Assembly (NCBI GenBank): GCA_001872545.1
Contig: MNWN01000018.1
Coordinates: forward strand, 1-51,617
DNA: 51,617 bases
Direction: 5' to 3'
Origin: Parcubacteria group bacterium CG1_02_58_44
Lineage (GTDB): Bacteria; Patescibacteriota; Patescibacteriia; SG8-24
Shown: piece after piece, positions 4,260-41,584 of the stretch
How the letters are laid out: each line of letters begins with the position of its first letter
Position numbering within the stretch: position 1 is the stretch's first letter
Notes under the pieces: generated by a model
Databases searched by the model: none
What the model saw: only the letters and a program-made list of their open reading frames with translations
Told to the model about the DNA's origin: nothing
Made by a program: the position numbers and the translations under genes

Positions 4260-4280
4260 CTGCCTTGTTTTTCTCCGGGC

Positions 4281-4608
4281 TGTCGTCCCGACGGCTATAC
4301 TCTGTCGTCCCGGACCTGATCCGGGACCCAGGAGCAGCCTTGCCGGCACTGGATCCCGGATATCGCTCGCTGCGCTCGCGATTCCGGGATGACAAACTAA
4401 AAAGGAATGCAGTTCCGAGATGACAAAAAAGCAATGTCGTCCCGACGGCTATACTCTGTCGTCCCGGACCTGATCCGGGACCCAGGAGCAGAAAAGATCG
4501 GACTCTGGATCCCGGATAATTGCTGACGCGATTTCCGGGATGACAAATTTAATAAGAGTTGCGATTCCGGGATGACAGATTAAGAAGGAATGAGGTTCCG
4601 GAACGACA
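4281..4608. repeat. Cluster of GTC-tagged REP-like palindromic repeats
   Basis: Identical 57-bp unit at 4281-4337 and 4435-4491; TGTCGTCCCGG...CCGGGATGACA palindromic ends; TTCCGGGATGACA-like motif at 4382, 4413, 4533, 4565 and 4596. Confidence 0.8.
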
Positions 4609-4628
4609 GGTTTTTTCGTGACGGCTGT

Positions 4629-5213
4629 CTAGGCCAGTCTTTCGGCAACCGACTTCCAATTGATGTGCGACCAGAATCCGGCGATGAATTTGGCCCGGTC
4701 GTTGCGGTGGTCGATGTAGTAGGTGTGTTCCCAGACATCGAGCGGCAGCAGCCCTCGGTCGTCAGTTCCGCCCGGAGTCTCGGCATTCTGATACTGCCGG
4801 ACTTCTAGTCGGTCGTCCGTGGTCTGCATCAGCCAGACCCAACCAGATCCGAACAGGCCGCCCGCCAATCCAGAAAATTTCTCTTTTAAGGTCTCAAACG
4901 ATCCGAAGTCACTCTCTATCTTTTCGAGCAGCTGATCTTCCGGCGTCTGTTCCGTCGGGGAAAGCGAGAGCCAGAACCGGTCATGATTGAAGTGCTGGGC
5001 TGCGTTGTTGAAGACAGCCGGATTGACGTCCCCGGAGACTCGGATCAGCTCCTCGAGCGGTCGGCCGTCCAGTTCAGTGCCGGAGACGGCGGCATTGAGC
5101 TTGCTAACGTAGGCGGCATGATGCTTGCCGTGATGATAGGAAAACGATTCGGCCGACAGCCACGGCTCCAGGGATGTCGGTTCGAAGGTTAGGTCGGGCA
5201 GAACGAAAGGCAT
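4629..5213 (-). CDS. sodB: Fe/Mn superoxide dismutase
   Basis: HHGKHH, FNNAAQHFNH, FGSGWVWL and DVWEHTYY motifs. Confidence 0.92.
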   Translation of the reverse strand: MPFVLPDLTFEPTSLEPWLSAESFSYHHGKHHAAYVSKLNAAVSGTELDGRPLEELIRVSGDVNPAVFNNAAQHFNHDRFWLSLSPTEQTPEDQLLEKIESDFGSFETLKEKFSGLAGGLFGSGWVWLMQTTDDRLEVRQYQNAETPGGTDDRGLLPLDVWEHTYYIDHRNDRAKFIAGFWSHINWKSVAERLA

Positions 5214-5386
5214 ATTCTTAGGATGACGATAGCTTAGGAATTCATCTTAGCATTTCGGACCGCAGTAAGTTTCAGTCCAAGTTACGTTTTGTCCGGTTTA
5301 AGCCATTTTTGACCCAAATCCCTGACAGTTCGGTCGTTAGGTAGCTATAATGGTTTCAGTTGGGCTATCTTCTGTGGATATTTCTT

Positions 5387-6613
5387 ATGAACGACAGACG
5401 AAAATTTGGAATGACCGCCTTTCGTATTTTTGGCGTCTTGCTGGTGGTTTCCCTATGGACCGCGGCTTTTGTGGTTCGAGCTCAGGCCGAGGAGATCAAC
5501 ACTAAGGCCCTGTCTCTCGTAGTTGAAAAGTATCCTTACACCAAGAAGGTCGTTGAAGTCGTGGAAGGATCGACCTATGGGGTCCTGATGGAAGAGGCTG
5601 AGATCGGCGGAACCGACGCGGCCGACATTTTTTTAGCCGCGCAGGACGTATACGACCTGTCGAAGGTGAAGGTCGGACACGAGATCGAACTGATCTTTGG
5701 TCGGGACAGCGGTCAGCTGCTGACGTTGGTCTATCAAATCGATACGGAAGAGAAGCTTTACGTGTCCCGCGACGGTGACGGCTGGAGCGCCGAACGCCGC
5801 GAGATAGAATACGACGTCAGGGTCAGGACGGTCGAAGGGCACATCGACACTTCGCTCTACGCCTCGGCCCTGGAGCAGGGGATCGACGAACGGGCCATCA
5901 TCGCCTTGGCCGACACTTTCCAATGGACGGTGGACTTCGCCATGGACGTGCGTCAGGGCGACCTATACCGGTTCCTCTATGAGGAAAGGTATCTGGACGG
6001 CAAGTACGTCATGCCGGGCCGCGTTTTCGCCGCCAAGTTCGAGAATGCTGGCCGTACGTTTTACGCTTTCCGCTATCAGGATCCGGACGGCACGGTCGGC
6101 TACTACAGCGAGACCGGCGAGTCGCTGCAGAAGATGTTCCTGAAGGCACCGGTGGCCTTCCGCTACATTTCCTCCGGCTTCACGACCGGACTGCGCTACG
6201 TTAGCGCCTTCAACGTCTCGACCGGACATCGGGCCATCGACTATGCGGCGCCGGTCGGTACGCCGATTCGGGCCGTGGGAGACGGGGTGGTGACCTGGGC
6301 CAGCTGGAACGGTCCGTACGGAAATTTCGTCAGCCTACGCCACAATTCCACGTACTCGACCAACTACGGACATATGTCGAAGATCGCGGTTCGGGTCGGC
6401 CAACGGGTGGTTCAGGGAGATACCATCGGTTACGTCGGCTCGACCGGCTTCTCGACCGGTCCGCACCTTCATTACGAGATGGTCAAGAACGGCGTCAAGA
6501 TCAACCCTCTCTTGGAAGATTTTCCCGGAACAGATCCGGTGCCGGCCGAGGAACTGGATGCCTTTACGTCTGGGATCGACGACTGGCGGCGTCAGCTCGA
6601 CAGCGACGACTAG
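5387..6613 (+). CDS. M23 family murein DD-endopeptidase (MepM/Csd3-like)
   Basis: N-terminal TM; HRAIDYAAPVGTP, YGHMS and STGPHLHYE motifs; start could be 5360, 5387 or 5411. Confidence 0.9.
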   Translation: MNDRRKFGMTAFRIFGVLLVVSLWTAAFVVRAQAEEINTKALSLVVEKYPYTKKVVEVVEGSTYGVLMEEAEIGGTDAADIFLAAQDVYDLSKVKVGHEIELIFGRDSGQLLTLVYQIDTEEKLYVSRDGDGWSAERREIEYDVRVRTVEGHIDTSLYASALEQGIDERAIIALADTFQWTVDFAMDVRQGDLYRFLYEERYLDGKYVMPGRVFAAKFENAGRTFYAFRYQDPDGTVGYYSETGESLQKMFLKAPVAFRYISSGFTTGLRYVSAFNVSTGHRAIDYAAPVGTPIRAVGDGVVTWASWNGPYGNFVSLRHNSTYSTNYGHMSKIAVRVGQRVVQGDTIGYVGSTGFSTGPHLHYEMVKNGVKINPLLEDFPGTDPVPAEELDAFTSGIDDWRRQLDSDD

Positions 6614-6784
6614 CGGCATTGTCCGACGGCTTGCGGATTGACTTTCGTGGCCGTTTTTTGTTTTCGGCGGACAGGACTGCATCGATGCGGACCGTCAGGT
6701 CCGACTTGCATGTCGGACGATGGACGCGACAGGTCGATTGCCGGTAACATGCCCGTGTAATATCGAACTCGTCACGCAAAAAAT

Positions 6785-8359
6785 ATGGCAGGTCAAAGTG
6801 CAGGGGCGAACATGCCGAAAACGCGCGGTACGGCTGAGGCGCTGCTGTACGTCTTTGCGGCCGGGTTTTGTCTGATGGTCATCGAACTGGTGGCCGGACG
6901 GATAATGGCACCGTATCTCGGCTCGTCGCTCTACACCTGGACCAGCGTGATCGGGGTGGTACTGCTGGGCATGGCAGTCGGCAACTACACTGGCGGAGTG
7001 ATCGCCGAGCGCGGAGCGGCCTGGCGGGCAGTGTCGCTGATCTTCGCCGCCTCTGCCCTGGCCGCCGCCGTCTCCTACTACACCTACGCTCCGGCCTCCA
7101 GACTGATCTACGGTCTCGGTCTGCCCGTCGTGCCGGCGACCTTCATCTTTGCCTTCTTCGGCTTCTTTCCGGTCAGCTTCCTGCTGAGCCTGATTACGCC
7201 GATCGTCATCGCCCTGACTTTGCCGTCGGTCGAGAAGGCCGGCACTACCGTCGGACGCATCTATGCCGTCTCGTCCCTGGCCAGCATTCTTGGCACCTTC
7301 GCCTCCGGTTACGTGCTCATTCCCTTCCTGGGGGTGAAGACCATCGTCCTTTCCGTGGCGGCTGTCCTGCTCCTGACTTCAGTCGTGGCCTCGCGGGGAC
7401 TGACGGCCCGTCGGCTGTCGGTTCAGGCGACAGTGGCGCTGCTGTGGCTGGGGCTCTTCGGGTCCAGTTTCTGCGACGTCGAGTCGGCCTACTACTGCAT
7501 TAACGTTGAGCCGTCGTCGTCGGAGCGGGGGACCGGATACCGCTTGGTGCTCGACCGTCTGACGCACAGTTTCGTCTTTTCCGATCCGACGGTACTCGAA
7601 TACGACTACGAGACGGTCTATGGCGTGGCGGCCGAATACGTTCACGAGCTTCTGGACGGACGGCGTCCGCTTCGGACCTTGAGCGTCGGCGGGGGCGGCT
7701 ACACCATGCCCAAGTTCGTGCTGGAGAACTATCCTGACTCGCTGGTCGACGTGGTGGAGATAGATCCGGAAGTCACGGAAATCAACGAACGCCGCTTGGG
7801 TCTGGAGCCGCATGGCCGGATCAGGACGTTCAACGAGGACGCCCGCGTATTCTTCGCCCGCGGTGCGGAGGGCGAGCGCTACGACATTATCTTCGGTGAT
7901 GCCTTCGACGACTATGCGATTCCGTATCACCTGACCACCCTGGAGTTCGCACAGGCGGTCCGTAGCCGGCTGACGCCGGACGGCGTCTACGCCCTGAACA
8001 TGATCGATGATACGAGTGACGGACGGCTGCTGGCGTCCTTTTTGAGGACCATGTCCGACGTGTTTCCTCACATCGAAGTCTCTTCCGTAGGACGTCCTCT
8101 GACTACGGCCGGCCGCAACACTTTCGTCATATTGGCTTCCGACAGTCCGATCGACACGGCCGACTGGAGGCAGGCCGCGGTCACCGCCTACTCGTCGCGC
8201 ATCGCCATGTCGCAGTCCCTGACCTTGGACCAGGCCAGCGGGCTGTTGAGCCGAAGGCAGATCGACGAACTGGCCGGAAGGAAGGGCAGTGTCCTGTTGA
8301 CCGACAATTACGCACCGGTCGACAGCCTGGTTGCCCCGCTCTTCGGTCGGAAGCGGTGA
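6785..8359 (+). CDS. Fused MFS-like membrane domain / spermidine synthase-like SAM-binding protein
   Basis: ELVAGRIMAPYLGSSLYTWTSVIG membrane N-terminus; VGGGGY, VVEIDPEV, YDIIFGDAF and LTDNYAPVD motifs. Confidence 0.88.
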   Translation: MAGQSAGANMPKTRGTAEALLYVFAAGFCLMVIELVAGRIMAPYLGSSLYTWTSVIGVVLLGMAVGNYTGGVIAERGAAWRAVSLIFAASALAAAVSYYTYAPASRLIYGLGLPVVPATFIFAFFGFFPVSFLLSLITPIVIALTLPSVEKAGTTVGRIYAVSSLASILGTFASGYVLIPFLGVKTIVLSVAAVLLLTSVVASRGLTARRLSVQATVALLWLGLFGSSFCDVESAYYCINVEPSSSERGTGYRLVLDRLTHSFVFSDPTVLEYDYETVYGVAAEYVHELLDGRRPLRTLSVGGGGYTMPKFVLENYPDSLVDVVEIDPEVTEINERRLGLEPHGRIRTFNEDARVFFARGAEGERYDIIFGDAFDDYAIPYHLTTLEFAQAVRSRLTPDGVYALNMIDDTSDGRLLASFLRTMSDVFPHIEVSSVGRPLTTAGRNTFVILASDSPIDTADWRQAAVTAYSSRIAMSQSLTLDQASGLLSRRQIDELAGRKGSVLLTDNYAPVDSLVAPLFGRKR

Positions 8360-8492
8360 CTTTTTTCGGCTTATTCGGCGGTGGGACGGTCTTGGGACCG
8401 TTTTTTCGTCAGTGGACGTTTTGATGCAGGTAAATGTAAAAAAACGGCCAGATTTGCTATAATTGCAGAGATAAATAATCATTCCGCATCCT

Positions 8493-10595
8493 ATGGGCTA
8501 CAACCAGGAAAAACTTAAGGGCCGACGGACGGCGACTTTCGGCGTGCTGCTGACCCTCGTGCTCACCGTCGGGCTGTTCGGTGGAGCACTGTACCTGTGG
8601 TATCTGGGACTGGACGTCGTCGGACCGACTCCCGACATCAACTATCGTCCGCCGTCGACCGGACAGGACAGGGGAGAGGTCGAGACGTTCGATTCCGAGC
8701 AGGACTTTACCGACTGGCTGACCGAGGCCGACAGCCTGGCCGTCTCCAACGGTCTGGGAATGGGAATGAATGCGGGCATAATGCGTACGGCCAGCGGCAT
8801 TCAGGCAGAGGACATGGCGGTGTCCGCTCCGATGGCTGCCGCTGACGAGAAGGTATCGCTCGATATGGGTGGCGGACCGGCACCCGACCGCATTTCCGAG
8901 ACTAACGTCCAGGTCGCTGGTATCGATGAACCAGACATCTTGAAGACCGACGGGAGAGAGATATATTTTTCGCCCGGAGTGATGCCGTATTTCTATCGCG
9001 GAGGGGCTATTCCCATGCCGATGGACGCCATGCCGGAGGTGTTTTCCGTGGAGGAGATGCCTTACGGTCGCGAGCCGGGAATCAGCGTCGTCAATGCCTT
9101 CCCTCCCGAGGACTTGGCGTTGGATTCGAAGATCGCGGGTGACGGCGATCTGCTGCTTAAGGACGGAGTGCTGGCGGTCCTGTCCTATGACGGGATCCGT
9201 GCCAATGACGTCAGCGATCCGAAGGCTTCCAAGGAAGCCTGGCAACTCTCATACGAGAACGGAAGTTGGCTGGTCGATGCACGCCTCAAGGACGACAAGC
9301 TGTTTCTGATCCTTTCCGGCGGCATCAACCGTGCCCGACCCTGTCCGTACGTTCCGCTTGCCGGAACCGAGGGTGAGGTGGAGATCGCCTGTTCCGTCAT
9401 CTGGCATCCGGTCGTGCCGACGCCGACCGACGTGACCTACACCGTGCTGAAAGTCGATATGGCCACCGGTAAGGTCGAGCGGACAGCCTCGTTCGTAGGT
9501 ACGCAGGGCTCGTCTACCGTCTACATGTCCGCGGACAGCATCTATGCGACCTATTCGCTGCCGGTCGACACCTTCACGTTCGTCTACGGGTTCCTGACCG
9601 CGAACTCCGACATCGTTCCGTCGTTCGTCCTGGAGAAGCTCAAGCAGGTCGTCAGCTATGACCTGGCCGAGGAGACGAAGTCGGTCGAGCTTCGGACAGT
9701 GCTGGGACGCTGGTTCCAGACGCTCGACCAGGACGAGGCGCTGGGTCTCATGAACGAGATCGATAACCGTATGGGCGACTACATCAAGGCCCATCGGCGG
9801 GAGCTGCAGCAGACCGGCATCGTCCGGCTCGACACCGACAAGCTGGAGGTCAAGTCGTCCGGATTCGTCCCAGGCACCCTGCTGAACCAGTTCTCGCTCG
9901 ACGAGTATGACGGCTTTCTGCGCGTGGCCACGACCTCGGGCGAGACCGGTGGCATATTTTGGCAATACGGCTTCGGCGGCGGACGCAGCGACAGCGTCAA
10001 CGACCTCTATGTCCTGGACATGAAGCTGAAGGTAGTGGGTGAGGCCCTGGGCATGGGTCCCGACGAGCGCATCTACGCCGTACGTTTCGTGGGCGAGCGG
10101 GGCTACGTCGTGACCTTCCGCCAGACCGACCCGTTCTATGTCCTGGACCTTTCGAATCCGCGTCGGCCGACGGTCGAGGGCGAGCTGAAGATCCCCGGCT
10201 ATTCCTCCTATCTGCATCCGCTCAAGGACGGGCGGATACTGGGCATCGGTCAGGAGGACAACCGAGTCAAGCTGTCGCTCTTCGACGTGACCGATCCGGC
10301 CAATCCGAGCGAACTCGACAAGTACAGCCTCAACGAGTACTGGTCCGACGTGCTCGACACACACCACGCTTTTCTCCTGGACGCCGAGCATGAGATCTTC
10401 TTCCTGCCCGGGTCAGACGGCGGCTACGTGATGTCCTATGCGGACGACAGGCTCAAGCTGTCGAAGGCAGTGAGCGGCATCCGGGCCAGACGGGCACTGT
10501 ACCTGGACAACTATCTCTATGTCGTCGGCGACGACCAGATCGTGGCGCTCGACATGACCGACTGGCAGCGGGTCAACCAGCTGAAGCTCCAGTAG
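8493..10595 (+). CDS. Membrane-anchored beta-propeller domain protein (Beta_propel type)
   Basis: SETNVQVAGIDEPDILKTDG, LNQFSLDEYDGFLRVATT, VVTFRQTDPFYVLDL and GELKIPGYSSYLHP motifs. Confidence 0.88.
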   Translation: MGYNQEKLKGRRTATFGVLLTLVLTVGLFGGALYLWYLGLDVVGPTPDINYRPPSTGQDRGEVETFDSEQDFTDWLTEADSLAVSNGLGMGMNAGIMRTASGIQAEDMAVSAPMAAADEKVSLDMGGGPAPDRISETNVQVAGIDEPDILKTDGREIYFSPGVMPYFYRGGAIPMPMDAMPEVFSVEEMPYGREPGISVVNAFPPEDLALDSKIAGDGDLLLKDGVLAVLSYDGIRANDVSDPKASKEAWQLSYENGSWLVDARLKDDKLFLILSGGINRARPCPYVPLAGTEGEVEIACSVIWHPVVPTPTDVTYTVLKVDMATGKVERTASFVGTQGSSTVYMSADSIYATYSLPVDTFTFVYGFLTANSDIVPSFVLEKLKQVVSYDLAEETKSVELRTVLGRWFQTLDQDEALGLMNEIDNRMGDYIKAHRRELQQTGIVRLDTDKLEVKSSGFVPGTLLNQFSLDEYDGFLRVATTSGETGGIFWQYGFGGGRSDSVNDLYVLDMKLKVVGEALGMGPDERIYAVRFVGERGYVVTFRQTDPFYVLDLSNPRRPTVEGELKIPGYSSYLHPLKDGRILGIGQEDNRVKLSLFDVTDPANPSELDKYSLNEYWSDVLDTHHAFLLDAEHEIFFLPGSDGGYVMSYADDRLKLSKAVSGIRARRALYLDNYLYVVGDDQIVALDMTDWQRVNQLKLQ

Positions 10596-10653: not shown

Positions 10654-11331
10654 CTAGCTCTCTTTTTCGTGCCGCAGGAACAGTCCGATGGCCAGCGCAT
10701 GGGTGACGTTGAGCGATTCCAGCCGTCCGTCGTGCGGTATCTCGATTCCCTGTCCGGCAAGCGGCAGCCGGATGCCGGAACCCTCCGAGCCGGCGATCAG
10801 GGCGATCCGTCGCGGTCCGACCAGTCCGTCCGGGCCGCTGCAGCCAGGTCGCCTCTCCAGGCGGAACAGCTGACGGTCAGTGCCGGAAAGGTAGGCGATA
10901 GCTTCCTCCGGCGGAAGTCGGAGCCAGGGGACGGAGAACATCGCCCCTGCCGACGACCGGATTACTTTAGGCGACGTGACGTCAGCCGACTCGATGAGCA
11001 GTAGGGACGCACCGAAACCCAGACACAGTCTCAGGACAGCGCCGACGTTGCCGGGATCCTGCACACCGTCGAGCACCACCAGAGTGGAGGAACCGTCCAG
11101 GTCGTCCTCCGACCAGCGCGGCGTGCGGGCCACAGCGGCCATGCCTTGAGGTGTTTCGGTCGAGACCAGGCGGTCAAACTCCGGCGTATCGTCACGGGAA
11201 AAAGTGAACTCGACCGCTGATCCGGCGGTGTCTATGACTTTCGTCCCCTCGACCAGACATCGGCCGGATTCCTCACGACTCTTCCCGCGATGCAGCGAAC
11301 GGATCAGTTTTTCCTGGACTTTGGTCAGCAT
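10654..11331 (-). CDS. TrmH/SpoU family RNA 2'-O-methyltransferase
   Basis: LDGVQDPGNVGAVLR, GSEGSG and IP..GRLESLNV SPOUT motifs. Confidence 0.9.
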   Translation of the reverse strand: MLTKVQEKLIRSLHRGKSREESGRCLVEGTKVIDTAGSAVEFTFSRDDTPEFDRLVSTETPQGMAAVARTPRWSEDDLDGSSTLVVLDGVQDPGNVGAVLRLCLGFGASLLLIESADVTSPKVIRSSAGAMFSVPWLRLPPEEAIAYLSGTDRQLFRLERRPGCSGPDGLVGPRRIALIAGSEGSGIRLPLAGQGIEIPHDGRLESLNVTHALAIGLFLRHEKES

Positions 11332-12196: not shown

Positions 12197-13057
12197 CTAG
12201 CTGCTGGTGAAGTAGTTGATGACCTCATGAGCGACATTCATACCTGTCGCCGCCTCGAAGCCGGCGAAACCGGGTGTGCGGTTGACCTCCAGAATGACCT
12301 GGCGGCCGTCCTCGGTTTCGGCCAGGTCCACGCCGGCGAATTCATATCGGAGGGTCCCGGCGGCCAGTTCGCACATCTCTGACGTTTCGGTCGACAGGCT
12401 GGCCGGTTCGGCCCGTCCGCCCAAGGATAGGTTGCGGCGGAAGTCACCGGCCGGAGCCTTCTTGCTGATTGCCCCCAGAACGCGGAAGCCGAGCACCAGG
12501 ACACGATATTCCTTCTTGATTTCCAGCTTTTCCTGCAGCAGACAGGGCCATTCGGTCTCGCTCGCCAGCGACGCCTCGGCCTCACTTCGGTTGCGGGCCA
12601 GGTGAACCCGTTCGCCTCTCGAGCCGTGCACGGACTTGACGACGATCGGCCAGCTGGTCCGGTCAAGCCGATTCCGGATTTCCGTCGGCGAGCTGGTCTG
12701 AAGGCCGTACGGCACCGGCAGTCCGGCCAGCAGCAGCTTCCAGGCGGAGTAGGTCTTGCTCTGGATGTAGACGTCCGTGGCGAGCGTCCGGTCCATGACT
12801 CGTCGGCCGGACCGGTGGAACAGCTCGGCCAGGAACAGTGACTCCGAGACATGAGGAAACAGCGAACGGAACAGCAGTCCGTCGAAGGAGTCGAGCAGGT
12901 CACGTCCGGCCAACGTCGCGGCAAAGCCGGACTTCGAGAATTCGAAGGCCATTTGCTCGACCGGTGAGACGGTCGCGGCATGACCGGCCAGCCGTGCCTC
13001 GCTCGCCAGCCGTTTATGCTCGACGAAATCCGGGTGTCCCAGTATCAGCAGTCTCAT
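12197..13057 (-). CDS. RimK family ATP-grasp alpha-L-glutamate ligase
   Basis: Start trimmed to MRLLILG; PIVVKSVHGSRG, LLQE, EYRVLV, FRRNLSLGG, AGVDL and ILEVNRTPGF motifs. Confidence 0.88.
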   Translation of the reverse strand: MRLLILGHPDFVEHKRLASEARLAGHAATVSPVEQMAFEFSKSGFAATLAGRDLLDSFDGLLFRSLFPHVSESLFLAELFHRSGRRVMDRTLATDVYIQSKTYSAWKLLLAGLPVPYGLQTSSPTEIRNRLDRTSWPIVVKSVHGSRGERVHLARNRSEAEASLASETEWPCLLQEKLEIKKEYRVLVLGFRVLGAISKKAPAGDFRRNLSLGGRAEPASLSTETSEMCELAAGTLRYEFAGVDLAETEDGRQVILEVNRTPGFAGFEAATGMNVAHEVINYFTSS

Positions 13058-33455: not shown

Positions 33456-33529
33456 TGCGGGATCGTCTAATGGTAGGACAACAGACTCTGAATCTGTTTA
33501 TCTAGGTTCGAATCCTAGTCCCGCAGCCA
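33456..33529 (+). tRNA. tRNA-Gln (anticodon CTG) with encoded CCA
   Basis: Acceptor TGCGGGA/TCCCGCA; anticodon arm ACAGA-CTCTGAA-TCTGT; T arm CTAGG-TTCGAAT-CCTAG; G-CCA end. Confidence 0.95.
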
Positions 33530-33531
33530 TG

Positions 33532-33561
33532 CAAAACACGACCGGAAACGGTCGTGTTTTG
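33532..33561 (+). terminator. Terminator after tRNA
   Basis: CAAAACACGACCG-GAAA-CGGTCGTGTTTTG. Confidence 0.85.
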
Positions 33562-33666
33562 GTATGATGAGATAGTAGGTAAAAGGGGTACGATGGTGAA
33601 TAAAATCTATTGCAAGGACAGATTTAACAATTTTCTATTCATGGCCAAGTTTAGCCCCGCGGAATT

Positions 33667-34071
33667 ATGACCGTTAAAAGAAAGCTTCTCATCACATTTG
33701 GAGTGGTTGTAGCCATTATTTTCGTGTTGCCGTACGTCGTGTCGGGGACGAAAAGAAGTTCGCTTGTCTGTAGGATGAGCGGTGGAAAGCCAGTCAGCGG
33801 AGGCGTGAGCTTTTCCGGCGATTCCGTTATCCTTTGTGCCCGGCCGTATGCTGACGGCGGGAATGCCTGCCGGTCATCGGGCGAATGCGATGGGAGGTGT
33901 GTGATTGGAGAGTGGAAAGACCGGCCAATCTTTCATTTCGATCCGAACTACTACCCAAAGAATGCCGTTGGACATTGCGACTACTACGATCAGCAGCCTA
34001 ACTGCCTTTACAACGTTGAGCTGCTGGGTGACGATAGGGTCCTTCAGGTAGGCTGGTGTATAGTAAGTTAA
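33667..34071 (+). CDS. Small Cys-rich membrane-anchored/exported protein
   Basis: N-terminal TM; C...GG, CARPYADGGNACRSSGECDGRC; eight Cys. Confidence 0.7.
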   Translation: MTVKRKLLITFGVVVAIIFVLPYVVSGTKRSSLVCRMSGGKPVSGGVSFSGDSVILCARPYADGGNACRSSGECDGRCVIGEWKDRPIFHFDPNYYPKNAVGHCDYYDQQPNCLYNVELLGDDRVLQVGWCIVS

Positions 34072-34130
34072 TCACTTTTTGCGGGCAAATTGGTGTAGCT
34101 ACTTGAATTGCGTTTCAAGAGTTTCTAGCA

Positions 34131-34182
34131 CGCCCAAGACGGGCAGCTAACAAGAGCAGGTCTCACTGAGGCCTGCTCTTTG
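34131..34182 (+). repeat. Cassette-boundary repeat R1 (tRNA-3'-like + terminator)
   Basis: CGCCCAAGACGGGCAGCTAACAAGAGCAGGTCTCACTGAGGCCTGCTCTTTG; 26 nt identical to R2. Confidence 0.8.
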
Positions 34183-34233
34183 CGAAGACCAAACCCTCGG
34201 CATGAGACCAGGGAGTGTCACTTAGCTCCCTTA

Positions 34234-36132
34234 TTACAACCCAAAGCCGCGGGGAAACAGAGGTGTACTACCATCGGACGTTTGTCCATCAACAGTCATC
34301 GGTAGCTGTTCGATCGTGCGCGGCCACGGCAGCGGTAGCCTGCCGGTGAAGGGGGATGCACCGAAAAGCGCGTCCGCCACGCCCCTTCCTTCGCTTCCGG
34401 GAAGCCACGCTGCGACTGTCGCGTCCCACTTTGAAATTTCGTCCGTCACGATGAGTGGCCTGCCGGAGACGATGATCACGACGACCCTCTTGCTCGTTTT
34501 CTGGAGGCTTGCGATTGCCGCAAGGTCGATATCATCGAGGCGAGGCTGCACATTGTCTCCCCATCCTTCCGCATAAGGCTTTTCGCCGACAATAGCGATT
34601 CCAACATCGGCGAGGTCCTTGTTCGGGAAGTCCCCATTCAGATCGTACTCCACCGTCGTCTGCATGCTGACGGCGGCCCGGATCCCCGCGAGAATGGACG
34701 TCGCTCCAGGTAGCCAGTTCCCGTCGATGCCTTGCCATTCGACTGTCCATCCGCCCGTCTGCCGGCCCACGTTGTCGGCGGCGCTCCCGGCCACTCTTAT
34801 ATGGCGTATATCGGACGACAGGGGCAATGTACGTTTCTGGTTACGGAGCAGGACCAACGAACACGCAACCGTTTCACGGGCCAGTGCGCGATGTTCCGTT
34901 GAACCAACGGTTTCAAGACCAGACCTCGATGCGCCATTGTCGTCGAATAGACCCATCGAGAATTTCGCGCGGAGAATGCGGCGAACGGCGTCATCAACAC
35001 GTGCTTGAGGGATGTCACCGCGAATGACTGCCTTATGCATGTCCGAGACGAAACCCTTGTAATCAAAAGGGAGCATGGCCATATCGATGCCGGCGTTGAT
35101 GGCCGAAACGGTCGAATCATAGCTGTTCCAGGAAATCGCGTACACGCCATACCAGTCGGACACCACGAATCCACGGAAGCCAAGTTCGTCCTTGAGCACG
35201 TCTGTCAGAATATACTCGCTCGCCGAAATGTCGCCTCCTCCCCAGGAGGCTAGTCCGGCCATGACACTCAATATCCCCGCATCGATCGCCGTGCGATACG
35301 GAGGCAGATAGACATCGGTCAGTGTTTCGCTGTCGTCGTTAGATACGACGCCCTGGTCGATACGAAAATCGTCGTTGTCCGATGTTCCCCAGGTCATGCT
35401 TCCCAGTCCGACGTAGTGCTTTGCGGTCGCGAGAACGTCAATCCGTGCGCCTTGTCCGGCGGCCTGCTGTAAGCCCCGTATGTAGGCAGCACCAAGCGTG
35501 CCGGCGCGCATGGGATCGTCTGAAAACGCCTCATAGACCCGTCCCCATCGAATGTCCATCGGAAGATCGAACGTCGGCGAAAAATGCCACCGGATGCCCA
35601 TGGCGGCGGATTCCTCGGCGATCGCGCGCGCGACACGCTCTGTTAGTACGGGATCGTTTGCCGCTCCGAGACCGATGAGATGCGGAAACAGCGTCGCACC
35701 AAGCACGTTCCCATTTCCGTGATTTGCGTCAGTGCCATAGAGTATCGGAATGCCAAGCCGCGTACCGCTGGCCGCGTCGGTGAACTCCGCGACCATATTC
35801 TTCCACCCCTGCGGCGTATTATCGTCCGGTTTTCCACCCGCACCGCTCAGGACTGCGCCGATTCCATAAGCAGCGACGTCTTTTGTGTTCTTAAGACTGT
35901 TCTTTTCCACGAGCGCCATTTGTCCAATCTTCTCCTCGAGTGTCATGTAGCCAAGAAGGTCCTCTACACGCGTTTCGATCGGCAACGACGCATCACGATA
36001 TAGTGCTTCATTTGGTGGGACAGGCGGTGGAGAGGGTGGCGTGAAAAATATCGCCAAAAGCACCGATCCTGTTATCAGGATCATTCCCAACACGGCAAAC
36101 GCAACTCTTTGTCTCCAAGGAGAGGTGAACAT
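34234..36132 (-). CDS. Membrane-anchored GH3 beta-glucosidase
   Basis: MTLEEKIGQM, RLGIPILYGTDANHG, DIRWGRVYE, AKHYVG, GFVVSDW and AWLPGSEG motifs. Confidence 0.93.
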   Translation of the reverse strand: MFTSPWRQRVAFAVLGMILITGSVLLAIFFTPPSPPPVPPNEALYRDASLPIETRVEDLLGYMTLEEKIGQMALVEKNSLKNTKDVAAYGIGAVLSGAGGKPDDNTPQGWKNMVAEFTDAASGTRLGIPILYGTDANHGNGNVLGATLFPHLIGLGAANDPVLTERVARAIAEESAAMGIRWHFSPTFDLPMDIRWGRVYEAFSDDPMRAGTLGAAYIRGLQQAAGQGARIDVLATAKHYVGLGSMTWGTSDNDDFRIDQGVVSNDDSETLTDVYLPPYRTAIDAGILSVMAGLASWGGGDISASEYILTDVLKDELGFRGFVVSDWYGVYAISWNSYDSTVSAINAGIDMAMLPFDYKGFVSDMHKAVIRGDIPQARVDDAVRRILRAKFSMGLFDDNGASRSGLETVGSTEHRALARETVACSLVLLRNQKRTLPLSSDIRHIRVAGSAADNVGRQTGGWTVEWQGIDGNWLPGATSILAGIRAAVSMQTTVEYDLNGDFPNKDLADVGIAIVGEKPYAEGWGDNVQPRLDDIDLAAIASLQKTSKRVVVIIVSGRPLIVTDEISKWDATVAAWLPGSEGRGVADALFGASPFTGRLPLPWPRTIEQLPMTVDGQTSDGSTPLFPRGFGL

Positions 36133-36279
36133 ATAGGGTTACTTTAATAGAAGCGTAGCACGTTTAGTTTATTCTTCGTCTTCGTAACTTTTAAAGCGCT
36201 CAAGGCAAAAAGTTACGAAAATCCGAGCCATCAGGCTCGAATTTTAGGCCATAAAACGGAACCGTTTTTTGTGGGCCGT

Positions 36280-36522
36280 TTATCTCAGAATAATTCGTAC
36301 GATCGCGATCAATATGCAGGAACCCAAGAGTGCCACCAGGAAACTGTATATATTGAAGCCACCAACGCCGCTTTTACCCAGGACACTCATTAGGTATCCG
36401 CCGATAAGTGCGCCGATCATGCCGACGATAACGTCGCGAATCAGTCCGCCTTGTGACCCCATGATCATCGATGCCACCCAGCCGACCAGGCCACCGAAGA
36501 ATATCCAAATGATGATTCCCAT
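36280..36522 (-). CDS. GlsB/YeaQ/YmgE family stress-response membrane protein
   Basis: MGIIIWIFFGGLVGWVASMIM...IVGMIGALIGG...SFLVALLGS. Confidence 0.88.
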   Translation of the reverse strand: MGIIIWIFFGGLVGWVASMIMGSQGGLIRDVIVGMIGALIGGYLMSVLGKSGVGGFNIYSFLVALLGSCILIAIVRIILR

Positions 36523-36526
36523 AGTG

Positions 36527-36886
36527 TCATTTCTTTATCTGCGCGTTTAATTTCGCGGCAGCTTCCGGCGTCGATACTGTCTTTCCGATCAGGATTAGTT
36601 TGATTATTCCTACAGCGACGATCCAATAGACGACCATCGCAAGAAGTGTGGTCCATTCAAAGATGTTGCTAGCAACCGATGAAATACGGAAGACTGCAAG
36701 AAAAGGAGCAGTGAAGATATAGGTGACACCGTAAATAAAAACGCTAAAACCAGCGGATGGATTTGCCCCCATCAATTTTAGTACAAAACGGAAGGCAAGA
36801 AGGACTTCCATTGCGCCGAGTAGGTACCATACGATTTGTGTGCCGCGATACAATGGCTTGGTGCTAGGCGAGTCAGCTGAATTCAT
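36527..36886 (-). CDS. YggT-like membrane protein
   Basis: EVLLAFRFVLKLMGANP..GF..FIY..T..FTAPF..F...EWTTLLAM. Confidence 0.8.
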   Translation of the reverse strand: MNSADSPSTKPLYRGTQIVWYLLGAMEVLLAFRFVLKLMGANPSAGFSVFIYGVTYIFTAPFLAVFRISSVASNIFEWTTLLAMVVYWIVAVGIIKLILIGKTVSTPEAAAKLNAQIKK

Positions 36887-37165
36887 TTGGTGTCTCGGGC
36901 AACTATGCATTATTTGAGAGAATTCCCTAAGTATACACTAAAAAATGGATTTGTCAGTCTTTGTTGGCTGCTAGGCTTAAAATGATTCAAATGGTATACG
37001 TTGGCTACGTTAACTGGTCAGTTGGTGCGTGTTATGGAACTTCGGTTCGACTCTGGAGTCGACGATATCTCAGTGTCTAATTTAGTTTTGTCTAGGCTTA
37101 ACGGTCGGAATGACCGCAGTTTGATAAACCAGCTCAGAAAATAGCGTATTCATTTTAATTGTCCC

Positions 37166-37222
37166 GAACGCATTCAAAACGGGCAGCTAACAAGAGCAGG
37201 TCTCTCCGAGGCCTGTTTCTGC
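37166..37222 (+). repeat. Cassette-boundary repeat R2
   Basis: GAACGCATTCAAAACGGGCAGCTAACAAGAGCAGGTCTCTCCGAGGCCTGTTTCTGC. Confidence 0.8.
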
Positions 37223-37249
37223 AATACTATGATTTTTAGCGTTTTTTTT

Positions 37250-37405
37250 GTCTGCAAAACCTCGGGCCAAGGCCCGGGATTCCTTATGATCCCTTGTCCT
37301 CATGGATTTTTTCGGATGAGACATATTTGGATGCGGACATGAGGACAAGGGACAAATGAAGTATCTCTAGTAAAGATACCCCAGGCCTTGCCCCGGGGAG
37401 TGTTG
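37250..37405. mobile_element. Candidate non-autonomous IS200/IS605-like palindromic element
   Basis: End hairpins CTCGGGCCAAGGCCCGGG and CCCCAGGCCTTGCCCCGGGGAGTGTTG enclose a perfect 15-bp IR (37290-37304/37338-37352). Confidence 0.45.
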
Positions 37406-37536
37406 TTTGGAGGAGTGGTTTGGGGTCATAGGGTGAAGGCTATAGTTTTTTGTCTCCGTAAAGTACGGGCAAACTATGTGATTTTGTGGCACCCTGATAA
37501 CATAGTTTCGTTTAACGGTCTATGCTGTTTGTCACT

Positions 37537-39415
37537 ATGGGCGCCGAACACGGTCTACAACGCGAATCCAAATCGGAGGAGGAGGTCGGAGCGGAGTCCA
37601 TCATGACTCCTGAACAGAGACGAATGTCCGAGGAACGGGCCGAATTTGATGTTCAGGAACAGCCTCCTTGGGAGGATTTTGAGGAGAATTCAGTTGACGA
37701 GAATTACGAACGTCGGAAGCCGACAGTCGAAGAGAAGGAACGGATGGATCGTACCATGGAGGAGCTTGGTCAACTCATGAGTCAGTCCGATGTCCGCTGG
37801 CAGCTCGATGGGGCCATCAACATTCCGCTCTTATGGCGGAGAATACATTGGTATCCACAAGGACGTCGACATCTCAGTCGAGCCGGATGATCTATCAGCT
37901 CTCGAGGCACATTTGGTCGGTCGGGGATACGGTCTGTTCGAGTCGTTGCCTCGCGACGGCGATGATTCGTCTCGTCGCCTGCGGCGTGTCTCTGCTGATC
38001 GAGTATTGGGCAGCGAATTGAGAGAAAAATTGGCAGTCAATAAGATCGACGGACGGGGCAAGATTATCCCCGGAGGTGACCTAAGCTCCATTGATCTTCA
38101 TGTCATCGGGCGCGATTCGGACGGTCGGGCGTTAGGTAAGAAAGGTACTCCGCTGCCCGAACGTTGGATGACCCCCGAGCGGATTACGGTTGTTGGCGGT
38201 AAGGAAGTTAACATTAGTCATCCGGCTCGCACCCTGTACTACAAATTGCACCAGGGACGCAACTACGATTTTACCGATCTTGATCGGTTGGTAGAGACTG
38301 GAGCGTTATCCGAACAGGACCTTTTCGAGGTCAAGCAAGTGTTGGCTGAAGAGCGTCAGGCCGATTATTCCATGATTGATCGTGCCTTGGCACCGATAGC
38401 CGACCGGTTGGCCGAAGCATCTGACGCAGGGGAGGTTTTTGCGGCGTTTGCCAATTCGCCGACATTCATTGAACACATGACGCCGGAAAAGGAAGAAACT
38501 CTTCGTAAGATAGCCGAGCGACTAGCGATGGCTGAGGATCGTACGCCTGCCGGATTGACCAAAGAAATGATTGCGTTCGCCGGATTGGACCGGCAGCATG
38601 ATCAGCGTCAAATGTGTATCGAACGTCTGATCGGGAAACTGAATGAAAATAAAAAAATGGTGCAGGCACGAAAGGAGATCGGTGAGGTCGGAGGTGAGAA
38701 GAAGACTTTAAGGATTGAAGGTTTTACTGCTGGCCTAGAGAATTTGACTGCCAGTGTTTTGAATAGGCTGCAGGATCGGGAGCATGTACTGCTGGCGATC
38801 AGCGGCAAATCCGGTTCTGGTAAGTCAGAACTGGCCCGGCAGCTCCGTGACCAGTTGGGCGAACAGGGTGTGAAAGCGACTGTGGTCAGCAGCGATGACT
38901 TCTACGACAGTGAAGACCCTCGTCGTCCGCAGGACAAGCATCTTGACCACGAGAGATTGCACGGTCTTTTTCGTGACCTTCAGGCGGGTAAGGCTTCGGG
39001 TAAATATGAACCGTCGTCGGTGATTATTATTGAGGGCCTGCAGACTATCGATGACAAGGTGGTCGGTCAGACACCGGATATGCGTGCGCATGTGGAGACC
39101 GACTTTAGTCAGCGCATGGGACGAAGGTTGGTGCGTGACGAACGGATTGGGTATCGTAATGCCGGTGTTTCGCTCGATATGCTCGCCAAAGTGGCGGTCA
39201 GCAATCCCGAGTTGATTCGAAAGTTCGAGACCGATGTTGATACGGACCATTGCGATTTCGTTATAGAAAACGATCACAAAGAGCCTCATGAACCAGAGAT
39301 TTTTATTCAGAACAATGAGCTTGTTTTTGTTATTGATGGTCAGATGAAGGAATCCCGTCGGCTCAGCCAAGACGAAAAGATGGCAATACTGGCGCTGGGT
39401 TTTGATGAAAGATAA
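37537..39415 (+). pseudogene. Frameshifted nucleotidyltransferase + uridine-kinase-like P-loop fusion (~625 aa if repaired)
   Basis: WQLDGAINIPL (frame A) joins YGGEYIGIHKDVDISV (frame B) if one T near 37831 is removed; C-terminal AISGKSGSGKS, VSSDDFY and IIIEGL motifs. Confidence 0.7.
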
Positions 39416-39429
39416 GGTGGCATCGTTCC

Positions 39430-39487
39430 GAACGCGTCCAAGACGGGCAGTCACGACAGAAAATCGCCCACAACAGGCGGTTTTTTG
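39430..39487 (+). repeat. Cassette-boundary repeat R3 (different terminator hairpin)
   Basis: GAACGCGTCCAAGACGGGCAGTCA followed by CAGAAAATCGCC-N7-GGCGGTTTTTTG. Confidence 0.8.
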
Positions 39488-39547
39488 CTTGGTTAGGTTA
39501 GTAGCGTATTATCTAGATAAATAATCTTTGACTCTCTTCCGTTAACT

Positions 39548-41515
39548 ATGGAAAGTCATTTTTCTCCAGAACGTTTCGGTCTTGATTCCGCTGATCCACA
39601 GAAAGAATCAGCGGAACTGCCGAAATTGGATACCAGTCCGGAAGTGTCCGTCGTTCCAGAAACCGGACCAGAGCGAGAGCTGCGGGAGCATTGGGAACTA
39701 ATAGATAGGCAAATTGATTCCGTCATCGGTTACGTTAGCCTAGTCGAGGATATCGAGGGTGCGGAGCTGCACGGCGAATCTGCCGACGAGGCGCTCGAAC
39801 GGGGCTTTGACAAAATAATGAAAGATCAGGGGTGGCAGCGATTACCGGACGAACTTAGCGCTCTTGAAAAGGAAAATGATGAGTTGCTCGAAGAATTTTG
39901 TGAGGCACCGGAGTCCGAGTCCGAACCTGATCGGACAGAAGAGGACAGTCAACGCCTTAAGGAAGATTTGCTCAATAGGGCCAAGAAGAACGGGGACAAA
40001 ATTAGACGACTGAGAAAGGATCCGAACCTGCTGTTCGCGAACGAGATGGCCGGCCTGAAGAATGACCTGCTGAAGAAACGCAAAGAGGTCGACGGTCTGC
40101 GCGAACAGAAAATTAACGATTGGCCGTTCTGGGAGGACAGTCATCCGGAATTTGGTCCGGACGATGCCGATCCAGACTTCGGGACCTTTGCTGTACGCCT
40201 TAATGTGGGTCCGGGTAAGTTGAGAAAAAGCCTCGGTGTCAGCTTCGGAGGAACGCCGATATTCGTGGTAGGTGCGGCCGATAGACATCAGGAAGGCGTT
40301 GCCGTGCATGAGACAATTCATACGATGATGCACGACCATTACAGGAACGTCACCCTGCTACTGTTGCAGAAATTTGACTTGGCGTTGGCCTCTGTTGAGA
40401 AGCTACATATTAGTGATGCTGAGCGGTTTCGGGAGAAAATTGGCACATTGGAGGATGTTTTCGCCGCCAGCAAAGACGAGCTGGTGGCAAACGTGCCCTA
40501 CCTAGAAAAAAAGCTGCTTGACCCGCTGGTCGAACCGAAGTTCAATGGCAACCTCATGGAGTCCGGTAACGTTTACGGCGAGGACTCTTTTTTCGACGAG
40601 AGCTACTCGACTGCCGCTATCGAGCTTAAGGGCTATATCGGCACTCTTAGGCATCATCGAGATAAGATTCTAGAGGACCTAGAAACCGCCGAAGGTGGGG
40701 AGGTTCTCGAGATAGCGCGCTCTCTGCAGGCACTTGTTGGTCACTGCAGCCGTCTGGAGCGGGAGATCGTTAAGATGCAGCGCGGAATGGAGCGCGGTAT
40801 CGTTGCCGCCGAACTGATGGGGTCCGAGATGCAGGGCCGGATGATGGCCTACTTTATGGTCAGCGATCCTGGCCAGTACAAGAATTCGCTGCGTTTTCTG
40901 GAGCGGCAGCCCGGTGGCGAAGGCGTGCGCGAAAAGGGGCCGCAGATAGACGGGATGGTCGCGTTTCAGAAGACCGGTCTCGTCTTGCCGGAACTTCTTG
41001 AGGCGGTATCCTCGTCGGGTGGTGACGATTGGACAGAACGCATGCGGAACAAATATGCGGCATGGACGCCGGAGCAGCTTCTTGGCAGATGCCTGTTTAC
41101 CGGTGTGGCTAGCGAGAAGATGCCGACCGATAAGTTCGGCGAGCAGCTGCGTCGACAGGTCGATTTCCTATGGGCGATGGACATACTGGTACCACCGGAA
41201 AAACTTGCCGAGGTGAAACGGGAATACTGTCGGAATAAGCTAGACCGCGTTTTGGCTAGAGATGAATGGGTGGATTCTTTCCGTGATTTCTTGTCCGGGG
41301 AACACAATCAAGACATGCGAATTGAGGCAGCCGAGCAAATCAGTCAAGGAATCAGAGAATTCTTAAAAACCGGAGAATACATCAGTATTGGTCCTGCGTA
41401 CTGGAGACTGAGGGGAATGGTCAAAAAAGCAGTGATGCTCGGCCTTGTCGAAGAATTGACGCTATCAGAACAGGAAATGGATCGTCTACCTCCGTATTTT
41501 ATTCATATCGACTGA
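39548..41515 (+). CDS. Large acidic hypothetical protein with HExxH motif
   Basis: 655-aa ORF; coiled-coil N-terminus; VAVHETIHTM. Confidence 0.7.
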   Translation: MESHFSPERFGLDSADPQKESAELPKLDTSPEVSVVPETGPERELREHWELIDRQIDSVIGYVSLVEDIEGAELHGESADEALERGFDKIMKDQGWQRLPDELSALEKENDELLEEFCEAPESESEPDRTEEDSQRLKEDLLNRAKKNGDKIRRLRKDPNLLFANEMAGLKNDLLKKRKEVDGLREQKINDWPFWEDSHPEFGPDDADPDFGTFAVRLNVGPGKLRKSLGVSFGGTPIFVVGAADRHQEGVAVHETIHTMMHDHYRNVTLLLLQKFDLALASVEKLHISDAERFREKIGTLEDVFAASKDELVANVPYLEKKLLDPLVEPKFNGNLMESGNVYGEDSFFDESYSTAAIELKGYIGTLRHHRDKILEDLETAEGGEVLEIARSLQALVGHCSRLEREIVKMQRGMERGIVAAELMGSEMQGRMMAYFMVSDPGQYKNSLRFLERQPGGEGVREKGPQIDGMVAFQKTGLVLPELLEAVSSSGGDDWTERMRNKYAAWTPEQLLGRCLFTGVASEKMPTDKFGEQLRRQVDFLWAMDILVPPEKLAEVKREYCRNKLDRVLARDEWVDSFRDFLSGEHNQDMRIEAAEQISQGIREFLKTGEYISIGPAYWRLRGMVKKAVMLGLVEELTLSEQEMDRLPPYFIHID

Positions 41516-41527
41516 ATTGCTGGTTAC

Positions 41528-41584
41528 GAACGCGTCCAAGATGGGCATTCAACAAAAACAGGCCTCTCCGAGGCCTGTTTTTGT
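41528..41584 (+). repeat. Cassette-boundary repeat R4
   Basis: GAACGCGTCCAAGATGGGCATTCAACAAAAACAGGCCTCTCCGAGGCCTGTTTTTGT. Confidence 0.8.

Follow-up and report, generated by a model that had tools for sequence, protein, structure and literature searches.

Repeats behind tRNA-Gln in a Parcubacteria genome as probable attR-type junctions of a large serine recombinase family

The tRNA-Gln locus

The DNA considered here, referred to as the window, is a stretch of 51,617 nucleotides (nt) from Parcubacteria group bacterium CG1_02_58_44, an ultra-small groundwater organism (assembly GCA_001872545.1, contig MNWN01000018.1, positions 1 to 51,617 of the forward strand). It constitutes contig C29 of a host genome (G000) of 51 contigs and 1,061,238 bp, with a G+C content of 58% and a completeness of 95.4%. 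Across 33-44 kb of the window the G+C content is 46-57%, as against about 60% upstream, and a tRNA-Gln(CTG) gene in this part is followed on its 3′ side by four plus-strand copies (R1 to R4) of a 29-nt motif, each trailed by a strong hairpin after a gap of 0-6 nt. The origin of these repeats, and the recombinase to which they can be tied, are the subject of this report. The features that define the array are as follows, with scores from a weight matrix that was made from 21 copies of the family and applied to the whole genome and to five shuffled genomes.

33456..33529, plus strand: tRNA-Gln(CTG), the landing site (ARAGORN; Rfam tRNA, 66.9 bits)
33501-33524, plus strand: predicted B half-site, the last ~24 nt of tRNA-Gln
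33523-33526, plus strand: predicted crossover region, GCAG
33532..33561, plus strand: terminator-like hairpin directly behind the tRNA, the right half of the tRNA junction (-22.3 kcal/mol, z -6.6)
34121..34180, plus strand: R1, a putative decayed P half-site at 34121-34149 (ends GCTA) with a hairpin at 34152-34180 (score 32.0; -21.6 kcal/mol)
37161..37221, plus strand: R2, the most decayed putative P half-site, at 37161-37189 (ends GCTA), with hairpin (score 25.7; -16.3 kcal/mol)
39425..39491, plus strand: R3, the best-kept putative P half-site, at 39425-39453 (ends GTCA), with hairpin (score 47.5; -16.1 kcal/mol)
41523..41584, plus strand: R4, a putative P half-site at 41523-41551 (ends TTCA) with hairpin (score 34.4; -23.0 kcal/mol, z -7.0)

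The right parts of R1 and R2 are identical over 26 nt, and R3 and R4 begin 9 and 7 nt past a stop codon. These traits, the four same-orientation repeats behind tRNA-Gln and the hairpin after each had been described in an earlier reading made from the letters of the window (the sequence-only reading), and all of them are confirmed, with the coordinates of that reading marking the core 5-10 nt further in. None of the four copies retains the CCA end of the tRNA. The next-best site of G000 in the matrix scan scores 14.0, which is within the range of the shuffled-genome maxima (9.9-16.5, n=5), so that with R1 to R4 far above every other site in the genome there are exactly four copies, all on the window contig. 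Further decayed copies above the shuffle level were found neither elsewhere in G000 nor near the GH3 glycosidase gene of the relative G007. Three of the four G000 copies have the lowest matrix scores among the loci of the window's family, and a search with the 24-mer of the sequence-only reading at up to 3 mismatches matches R2 and R3 (0.00 expected), R1 and R4 being more diverged.

The hairpins behind tRNA-Gln and R1 to R4 fold at -16 to -23 kcal/mol, with z of -3.3 to -7.0. A consensus terminator scan flags that of R3 alone, on the minus strand, probably because A/T-extended stems use up the T-run of the others. Searches of the window region and of the array of the congener G002 against Rfam matched the tRNA and nothing else. 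The stretch is present in 24 groundwater or aquifer sequencing runs, of which 3 may be its source. Contigs assembled from four such runs, at a depth of 2-7 that cannot show rare circles or empty sites, span all four repeats in the arrangement of the window. The hairpin behind the window's tRNA-Gln (33523-33568) is 89% identical over 46 nt to the one behind a motif copy in the metagenome array L067 (806-850), and the genes after the two differ. Right-hand hairpins fall into a few recurring types (…AAAACCCGAGC…, …ACAGGCCTC…).

Occurrence of the motif in relatives and metagenomes

The 18-nt core of the motif, at up to two mismatches, is matched in 13 of 24 family genomes. Once the matches G011:C56 and G001:C70 are dropped as chance matches in coding sequence, 12 genomes carry the motif, with 1-4 copies clustered in each relative and the consensus GTTCYGAAYRCGTCCAAGACGGGCAGCCA, which has the GCCA end of the tRNA. 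In half of these 12 (G000, G001, G002, G007, G010, and G021) tRNA-Gln(CTG) is followed on the same strand by the first copy at a distance of 0.55-1.6 kb, and in G006 this distance is 25 kb, a prophage-like stretch intervening. In G016, motif and tRNA-Gln sit at different contig ends, with a plain hairpin behind the motif copy, and in the remaining genomes (G003, G008, G012, and G022) there is no whole tRNA-Gln in the stretch around the motif, a contig start being at most 1.5 kb away in G003, G012:C43, and G022. A same-strand open reading frame (ORF) of at least 80 amino acids (aa) ends between -1 and 85 nt before the motif in 19 of the 25 copies listed; thus, the element closes genes.

Outside the family, two one-mismatch matches occur among 400 sampled Patescibacteria genomes (L024 and L025); the one in L025 overlaps none of its three tRNA genes, and L024 carries no tRNA gene. 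Among metagenome contigs the exact 18-mer occurs at 46 loci, 9 of which have the full motif with its hairpin and 7 a variant in which the first 11 nt differ, while 2 (L052 and L072) are tied to a distant large serine recombinase (LSR) and the remaining 28 look like chance or coding matches. The variant motif (GTTTGAAAAGTGTCCAAGACGGGCAGCCA and relatives) closes small genes, including those for HepT and a helix-turn-helix (HTH) protein, in L044, L045, L046, L054, and L056, and is arrayed in 2-3 copies at L044, L046, and L056; the hosts are apparently other organisms. In L052 (3644-3672), the 18-mer is found within the 3′ region of the distant LSR gene, where it reads WLPVLDAS, and the 25 nt before it recur in L072, unlike the sequence behind. 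That enzyme is 24% identical to the LSR of metagenome locus L043 described below; a module of site and tail may be shared across deep LSR lineages.

Viral contigs contain one exact match to the 18-mer, on a 38,080-bp contig that also carries a metagenome match without the motif. An LSR profile search of viral contigs returned a 57-aa fragment and a single relative of 24% identity, neither of them close to a tRNA or a motif copy. At L012 (G012:C11), two motif copies at 8047 and 8091 stand 44 nt apart with no gene between, the second decayed (23.6), which looks like an emptied cassette position.

A recombinase encoded across the motif

The motif is tied to its enzyme by a 15,740-bp metagenome contig (L051+L043) that encodes a 541-aa LSR with Resolvase (2.9e-19), Recombinase (1.2e-14), and Zn_ribbon_recom (2.4e-13) domains. 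Codons 507-516 of this gene, WLPVLDALRT, are the reverse complement of the motif, so that the protein reads …RPM|WLPVLDALRT… across it and continues for 25 more residues. The sequence-only reading had noticed LPVLDAFGT in the antisense frame of the repeats and had suggested that such a peptide could be the C-terminus of a recombinase overlapping its own att site, and the L043 enzyme bears this out. A stretch of 126 nt, comprising tail and motif, stands at both ends of the contig. The two copies part exactly after GCAGCCA, one running on into the LSR gene (P|P′) and the other into unrelated sequence (P|B′).

An integrated counterpart is found in G016, whose LSR has the same three domains and is 60.7% identical to that of L043 over residues 1-508. 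Its gene converges on tRNA-Gln(CTG) and ends …PIWLRD* inside the tRNA with an overlap of 15 nt, its last four codons and stop being the antisense of the tRNA's CCTAGTCCCGCAGCCA. This junction is an attL. In the congener G001, a 114-aa C-terminal LSR remnant (61% identical) abuts tRNA-Gln, and the motif follows 1.25 kb further on.

Overlap with a convergent tRNA gene is seen for four LSR genes in relatives, at tRNAs for Gln, Trp, Arg, and Ser. Besides the Gln case, these are L076 (G001:C57; tRNA-Trp, 36 nt), L077 (G002:C13; tRNA-Arg(TCG), 64 nt), and L079 (G002:C12; tRNA-Ser(GGA), 88 nt), whose C-termini (…ESNPQF, …GGNRTP…, and …GDSNSRG…, respectively) read as antisense T-loops. Among 8,000 candidates scored, 2,928 homologues of the L043 LSR were obtained at E <= 1e-30; where named, they are recombinase family proteins of Patescibacteria. 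When the C-termini of the best 120 homologues were sorted by regular-expression heuristics on the protein sequences, 91 resembled an antisense tRNA end, with 39 carrying DSNxxP, an antisense-T-loop peptide, and 52 stopping 2-4 residues after xL(R/P). A further 13 have the free-form tail xL(P/R)xLDxFRT and 16 are unclear; two of the 120 end in WLRD.

Insertion boundaries and site geometry

An empty and an occupied site can be compared in two relatives, since the ~90 nt behind the tRNA in G006 are those found behind the motif in G010. Between the CCA of the tRNA and the CCA of the motif, G010 carries an insert of 577 bp made up of a hairpin, a 133-aa ORF, and the motif, with no recombinase, and the boundary is exact to the common GC(A/G)GCCA.

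A second comparison concerns the unit that encodes a large HExxH protein in the window. From R3 through the HExxH gene into R4, the window (39418-41547) is 95.35% identical over 2130 nt to locus L010 of G002 (8310-10431), as compared with 75.98% for the syntenic core upstream. The unit is the fourth in the array of the window and the second among the motif-closed units of G002, and its neighbours are unlike. GTCA (motif positions 26-29) goes with the downstream HExxH unit in both genomes, and GTTA (positions 1-4) with the upstream one; therefore, exchange took place between motif positions 4 and 26, and the hairpin after each motif forms part of the unit that follows. In the window, R3 from GTCA rightward goes with the HExxH cassette and is common to L010 8317 ff. 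R4 is 83.6% identical to L010 13146-13206, and its hairpin, of the kind that follows the last motif in G002, is likely the ancestral post-tRNA hairpin. The sequence-only reading had taken the repeats for att-type junctions left by integrations at tRNA-Gln and had expected cassette content to vary between relatives with breakpoints in the repeat, and both expectations are upheld by the HExxH unit and the G006/G010 pair.

Over 32 copies, conservation sets in abruptly at position 1 and is lost immediately past position 29, with a weaker 'FEW'-coding trace just upstream of the motif in many copies. The geometry of the site is described here with a putative centre at CA (positions 24-25 in GGGCAGCCA). 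With this centre, the P arm extends 24 nt to the left, and a T-loop-like box, GTTCYGAAY, lies at 16-24 bp in the motif, as against 12-19 for the tRNA's GTTCGAAT. The inner P arm aligns with the tRNA end without a shift (T.CC.AG.C..G, 7/11 identical), and in the LSR-proximal P′ arm GGACG mirrors the CGTCC of the P arm. According to Rutherford et al. (2013; PMC3783163), an attP half-site spans 25 bp with the zinc-ribbon motif at 16-24, and this motif is 5 bp closer to the centre in attB. If the centre is correctly placed, the outer box of the motif would lie 5 bp further out than in the tRNA, which matches the published attP/attB rule. What the sequence-only reading had called a constant arm would then be the shifted zinc-ribbon box. 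As judged from these alignments, the target appears to contribute only its last ~5 nt (AGCCA) and the hairpin behind it, the motif being in effect a shifted mimic of the tRNA end. The exact 17-nt end of tRNA-Gln occurs once in the window, and repeat and tRNA end are identical over the last 7 nt only.

Proposed serial insertion at tRNA-Gln

In all likelihood, each repeat is an attR-type junction that arose by site-specific integration at the 3′ end of tRNA-Gln(CTG), with cargo stacked through repeated insertion and loss of the integrase. The 29 nt would comprise the 24-nt left (P) half-site of the attP of an LSR element, together with the AGCCA common to element and tRNA end, and the hairpin behind a motif would be whatever followed the tRNA, or the previous site, at the time of insertion. 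Complete elements would carry attP within the last codons of the LSR gene, on the opposite strand; from this position it follows that the free element would encode …WLPVLDAFRT… and the integrated form would end …WLRD* off the tRNA. On entry of an LSR element at the tRNA end, the tRNA would gain a hairpin from the element, and the P arm with the old hairpin would shift to the right. The integrase module would be lost later, a stage that is seen in G001, and the next element would then arrive. Integrase-less units may also have been captured in trans, and four cargo blocks would have been stacked in the window.

The comparisons above establish the link between site and LSR, tRNA-Gln as the target, the empty and occupied states of the site, and breakpoints within the motif. 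From them, we infer that the crossover falls within GCAG and that events followed the order just given. The scheme accounts for the direction of the copies, their order, and the inheritance of hairpins. Since G000 has no LSR and its sites have mutated CCA ends and decayed arms, we further infer that the four sites of the window are inactive relics.

Several points weigh against serial insertion. Canonical LSRs join attP and attB, and neither integrate into attL nor recombine attR with attR, so the regeneration of an attB-like tRNA junction for the next insertion is unexplained. The right-hand hairpins of R1, R2, and R4 are of one type, which would not be expected from simple successive insertions at the tRNA. 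The crossover is bracketed to positions 4-26 and not mapped more finely. The P|P′ and P|B′ layout comes from one assembled metagenome contig, which could represent a tandem copy or an assembly path and not a circle. An LSR with Resolvase, Recombinase, and zinc-ribbon domains tied to the site is found in L043 and G016 and not in G000, in which PF00239 has 0 matches and tblastn gave nothing relevant at E up to 10; with neither gene nor remnant there, the enzyme is tied to R1 to R4 through relatives only. Lastly, an all-against-all blastn comparison of 23 array loci found the HExxH unit alone as a cassette common to arrays at >=78% identity.

As the sites of the window are read as relics, the local biology would be ordinary, and the value of the locus lies in the family-wide pattern. 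That pattern provides a base-pair-level account of a gene-gain hot spot in bacteria whose genomes span ~1 Mb and for which few other avenues of exchange can be seen. As short, clearly delimited sequences, the predicted attP/attB pairs are candidate orthogonal integration tools, and the swap of the recombinase tail between the free and integrated forms offers a testable idea on the control of direction.

Alternative explanations

It is possible, though doubtful, that the array is an active platform fed by trans capture in the manner of an integron, with units of hairpin, ORF, and 24-nt P arm moving as small circles, to the tRNA or to sites already present, under an LSR encoded on another element or in another cell line of the population. 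The 577-bp single-ORF unit of G010, set precisely between two CCA ends, is what such capture would produce, as are the arrays of one-gene units of 0.5-1 kb that recur in L009 (3 sites), L013 (3), L035 (3), and L067 (4). In two species the HExxH unit has both of its boundaries in common but not its neighbours, the P arm is near-invariant across genera while the flanks are unrelated, the site pair of L012 is free of cargo, and the cargo elsewhere is of the integron style (HepT, ParE, AbiEii, Fic, Imm5-like, HTH). However, no circular junction or alternative joint was seen in the assembled contigs, which by themselves cannot show rare circles. Known LSRs require both arms of attP, and no conserved site is recognizable in the right arms of the cassettes. 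G001 shows another route, that of an LSR gene decaying in place, and the sites of G000 are decaying. With the same reserve, one may ask whether members of the candidate phyla radiation (CPR) possess a serine-recombinase counterpart of the integron, in which minimal circles made of one gene, a hairpin, and a 24-nt attP arm would be taken up and shuffled at tRNA-Gln by a trans-acting LSR and the C-terminal tail of the enzyme (35 aa in the free form, 4 aa when integrated) would switch the reaction from insertion to excision or back.

Homologous recombination between conserved 29-mers following DNA uptake, in which the recombinase-less units would need no site-specific enzyme, appears improbable. 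It would suit a genome that has no LSR, and any homology-driven exchange would place breakpoints inside a conserved stretch. However, the junction between tRNA and motif offers 7 identical nt, yet the G010 insert is precise, and in both length and internal geometry the conserved block corresponds to an LSR half-site. Moreover, 29 nt is very short for RecA-type exchange.

It is very unlikely that the motif acts at the RNA level, as a 3′-untranslated-region or terminator module or as a tRNA-like processing signal of a small regulon. Its position just past stop codons and just ahead of a strong hairpin, its tRNA-like GCCA end, and a small palindrome (CGTC-CAA-GACG) would fit such a role, but changes in the palindrome among the 32 copies do not covary (by eye), no Rfam family matches, and the copies form a cluster at a single locus, where a regulon would have them dispersed. 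The motif sequence is antisense coding in the LSR gene, and the empty and occupied sites and the breakpoints are DNA-level events.

The sequence-only reading had traced the core to another tRNA-Gln allele, whose 3′ end would have been displaced by integration; islands of the tyrosine-integrase type are considered here as the agents. R3 does agree with 12 of the 17 nt at the end of the resident tRNA (by eye), as that reading had counted, the U1-A72/G73 logic suits Gln, and real displaced tRNA-Gln fragments occur in relatives, but the proposal is now scarcely credible, because the acceptor strand ACGGGCA could not base-pair with the 5′ end of the resident tRNA and is present in none of the 41 tRNAs of G000, a tRNA-Gln with this end was found neither among those tRNAs nor in the 400 sampled Patescibacteria genomes, no tyrosine recombinase adjoins any array, and a T-loop box shifted by 5 bp means that the motif is not a tRNA 3′ half; the core is the attP arm of the element.

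Three further candidates were rejected. A Xer/dif system was set aside as the motif shows no paired arms of the dif kind (by eye) and none of the arrays has a tyrosine recombinase in its vicinity. An integron was set aside as no IntI-type tyrosine recombinase accompanies the array, which has a 29-nt non-palindromic block and a hairpin of variable sequence (attC boxes compared by eye). A genome-wide repetitive extragenic palindrome or terminator repeat, or a known RNA family, does not agree with four copies at one locus and Rfam matches to tRNA only.

Relation to known systems

The closest precedent for an array of attR-type junctions at one gene end is provided by the ssrA islands of Dehalococcoides, which are described as tandem islands downstream of ssrA, some of them without an integration module ('cis-mobilizable', accretion; McMurdie et al., 2011; PMC3146451). 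According to the same account, the CcrB-like serine recombinase DsiB is encoded by a gene that in every case reaches over attL with its 3′ end and finds its stop only in the target, and the islands are bounded by a 20-bp direct repeat, with an extra conserved motif upstream that is not alignable with the target (PMC3146451). The likeness shown here to these islands and to the staphylococcal cassette chromosome (SCC) is one of mode and makes no claim of family membership: tandem elements at the 3′ end of one gene, a recombinase gene over attL, and recombinase-less members. In contrast to the ssrA islands as described there, the target is tRNA-Gln and not transfer-messenger RNA (tmRNA), the units are mostly single genes of 0.5-3 kb and not islands of several kb, and the host belongs to the CPR. 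The repeat shares 5-7 nt with its target, as against the 20 bp given for the ssrA islands, since its crossover would fall close to the acceptor end rather than within the T-loop. No second recombinase like DsiA, nor an integration module, was seen here, though no dedicated search was made.

SCC and pseudo-SCC elements of staphylococci use serine recombinases (CcrAB/CcrC) at the 3′ end of rlmH, form tandem elements closed by short repeats, and commonly include recombinase-less members. They differ from the present elements in having a protein gene as the target, here replaced by a tRNA, and in that attP here lies inside the recombinase ORF. Integrons and CALINs (clusters of attC sites lacking integron integrases) involve the tyrosine recombinase IntI, folded attC sites of 57-141 nt, and attI with a promoter as the anchor. 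The arrays described here are like them in their mostly one-gene, same-orientation cassettes that are each closed by a site, in the existence of recombinase-free arrays, and in a cargo rich in toxin-antitoxin genes, and unlike them in having no IntI-type enzyme, a non-palindromic 29-mer as the site, and a tRNA gene as the anchor. IntP of the myxophage Mx8, attributed to Tojo and colleagues in 1996, is reportedly a tyrosine integrase, with no cassette array involved.

The Listeria A118/LI integrases resemble the present enzymes in their Resolvase, Recombinase, and zinc-ribbon domains, a half-site of ~25 bp, and the 5-bp shift of the outer box (PMC3783163). Unlike the present enzymes, they act on protein genes or intergenic sites; an attP within the int ORF is not reported for them, nor are cassette arrays known. 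Islands of tyrosine integrases at tRNA and tmRNA genes, as catalogued by Islander (PMC4383910), land at the tRNA 3′ end, have the gene restored by the element, and can occur in tandem arrays. The arrays at tRNA-Gln differ from the islands so described in using a serine recombinase and in that the repeat is not a copy of a tRNA fragment. The word 'tRNA' does not appear in the main text of Durrant et al. (2022; PMC10083194), and in our literature search neither tRNA-Gln cassette arrays of LSRs nor the present LSR family in CPR bacteria were found described. What sets these arrays apart from the ssrA islands and SCC is a tRNA target, a predicted near-terminal crossover whose repeat is the element's own arm, and single-gene unit size.

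Cargo genes and other elements

The four cassettes of the window are the following.

33667..34071, plus strand: cassette 1, a 134-aa Cys-rich protein with a hydrophobic N-terminus (from the ORF list; no Pfam family, and no relative among the array loci compared)
34234..36910, minus strand: cassette 2, inverted, with a GH3 glycosidase (34234-36132), Transgly_assoc/GlsB (36280-36522), and a YGGT-like protein (36527-36910), by Pfam
37522..39415, plus strand: cassette 3, a kinase-containing gene in ORFs 37522-37890 and 37790-39415 (PRK/uridine-kinase domain, E 4.3e-10)
39548..41515, plus strand: cassette 4, the 655-aa HExxH protein (no Pfam family above the cut-off)

The gene blocks named in the sequence-only reading stand as to GH3 and GlsB, which have Pfam matches, and as to the kinase, which is of the PRK type. 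Its YGGT assignment has a weak match (E 0.0027, below the Pfam cut-off), and the N-terminal 'NTase' half of cassette 3 has no Pfam match. Among five relatives searched, one (G007) has a GH3 homologue, 70% identical in aa and likewise behind its array; none was found in either congener. The gene of cassette 3 is broken by a single frameshift near 37840 into two overlapping frames, unchanged in a spanning contig from one sequencing run (X8), and a 3′ remnant of it, 74% identical, stands before the last motif of G002. Cargo of the arrays is an ordinary accessory assortment that includes a CHASE histidine kinase, an RNase T-like exonuclease, a methyltransferase, Fic/RhuM, AbiEii, and an Imm5-like protein, as well as HepT, ParE, HTH, SDR, and M16 peptidase proteins. 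At the protein level (tblastn), the 133-aa ORF of the G010 insert, named TspO by eye from its sequence, has relatives in L029/L068 and L035.

True displaced 3′ ends of tRNA-Gln form a separate class of repeat in relatives, with three in G002 and others in G003, G008, and G012. Those of G002 (L010 7425-7615, 10990-11073, and 12700-12865) match the tRNA end over 17 nt, exactly in two cases and with 1 mismatch in the third, have hairpins of their own, and each follow a conserved GC-rich arm of 75-170 nt, a probable P arm from a different lineage of elements. In L010, a small ORF (10720-10990) is GIY-YIG-like by eye.

Matches to the tyrosine recombinase family PF00589 occur on contigs other than those of the arrays in 21 of the 24 family genomes. 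Its sole trace in G000 is a 77-aa open fragment at C23:54132-54227, beside tRNA-Glu(CTC) (C23:53836-53913), probably a remnant of another integrated element. A Xer-like recombinase is present in 20 of the 23 other family genomes and was not found in the G000 assembly. Two adjacent tRNA-Gly(CCC) calls are also made in G000 (C33:12374-12447 and 12611-12685), the second with a deviant T-arm and acceptor end, and this second copy is possibly a pseudo-tRNA or related to an att site. In G006, the stretch between tRNA-Gln and the array (L075, G006:C9, ~3700-10300) is phage-like and encodes a different serine recombinase of 433 aa, confirmed by Pfam, along with ORFs that are terminase-like and DNA-methylase-like by eye; a similar set is found in G018 (L078).

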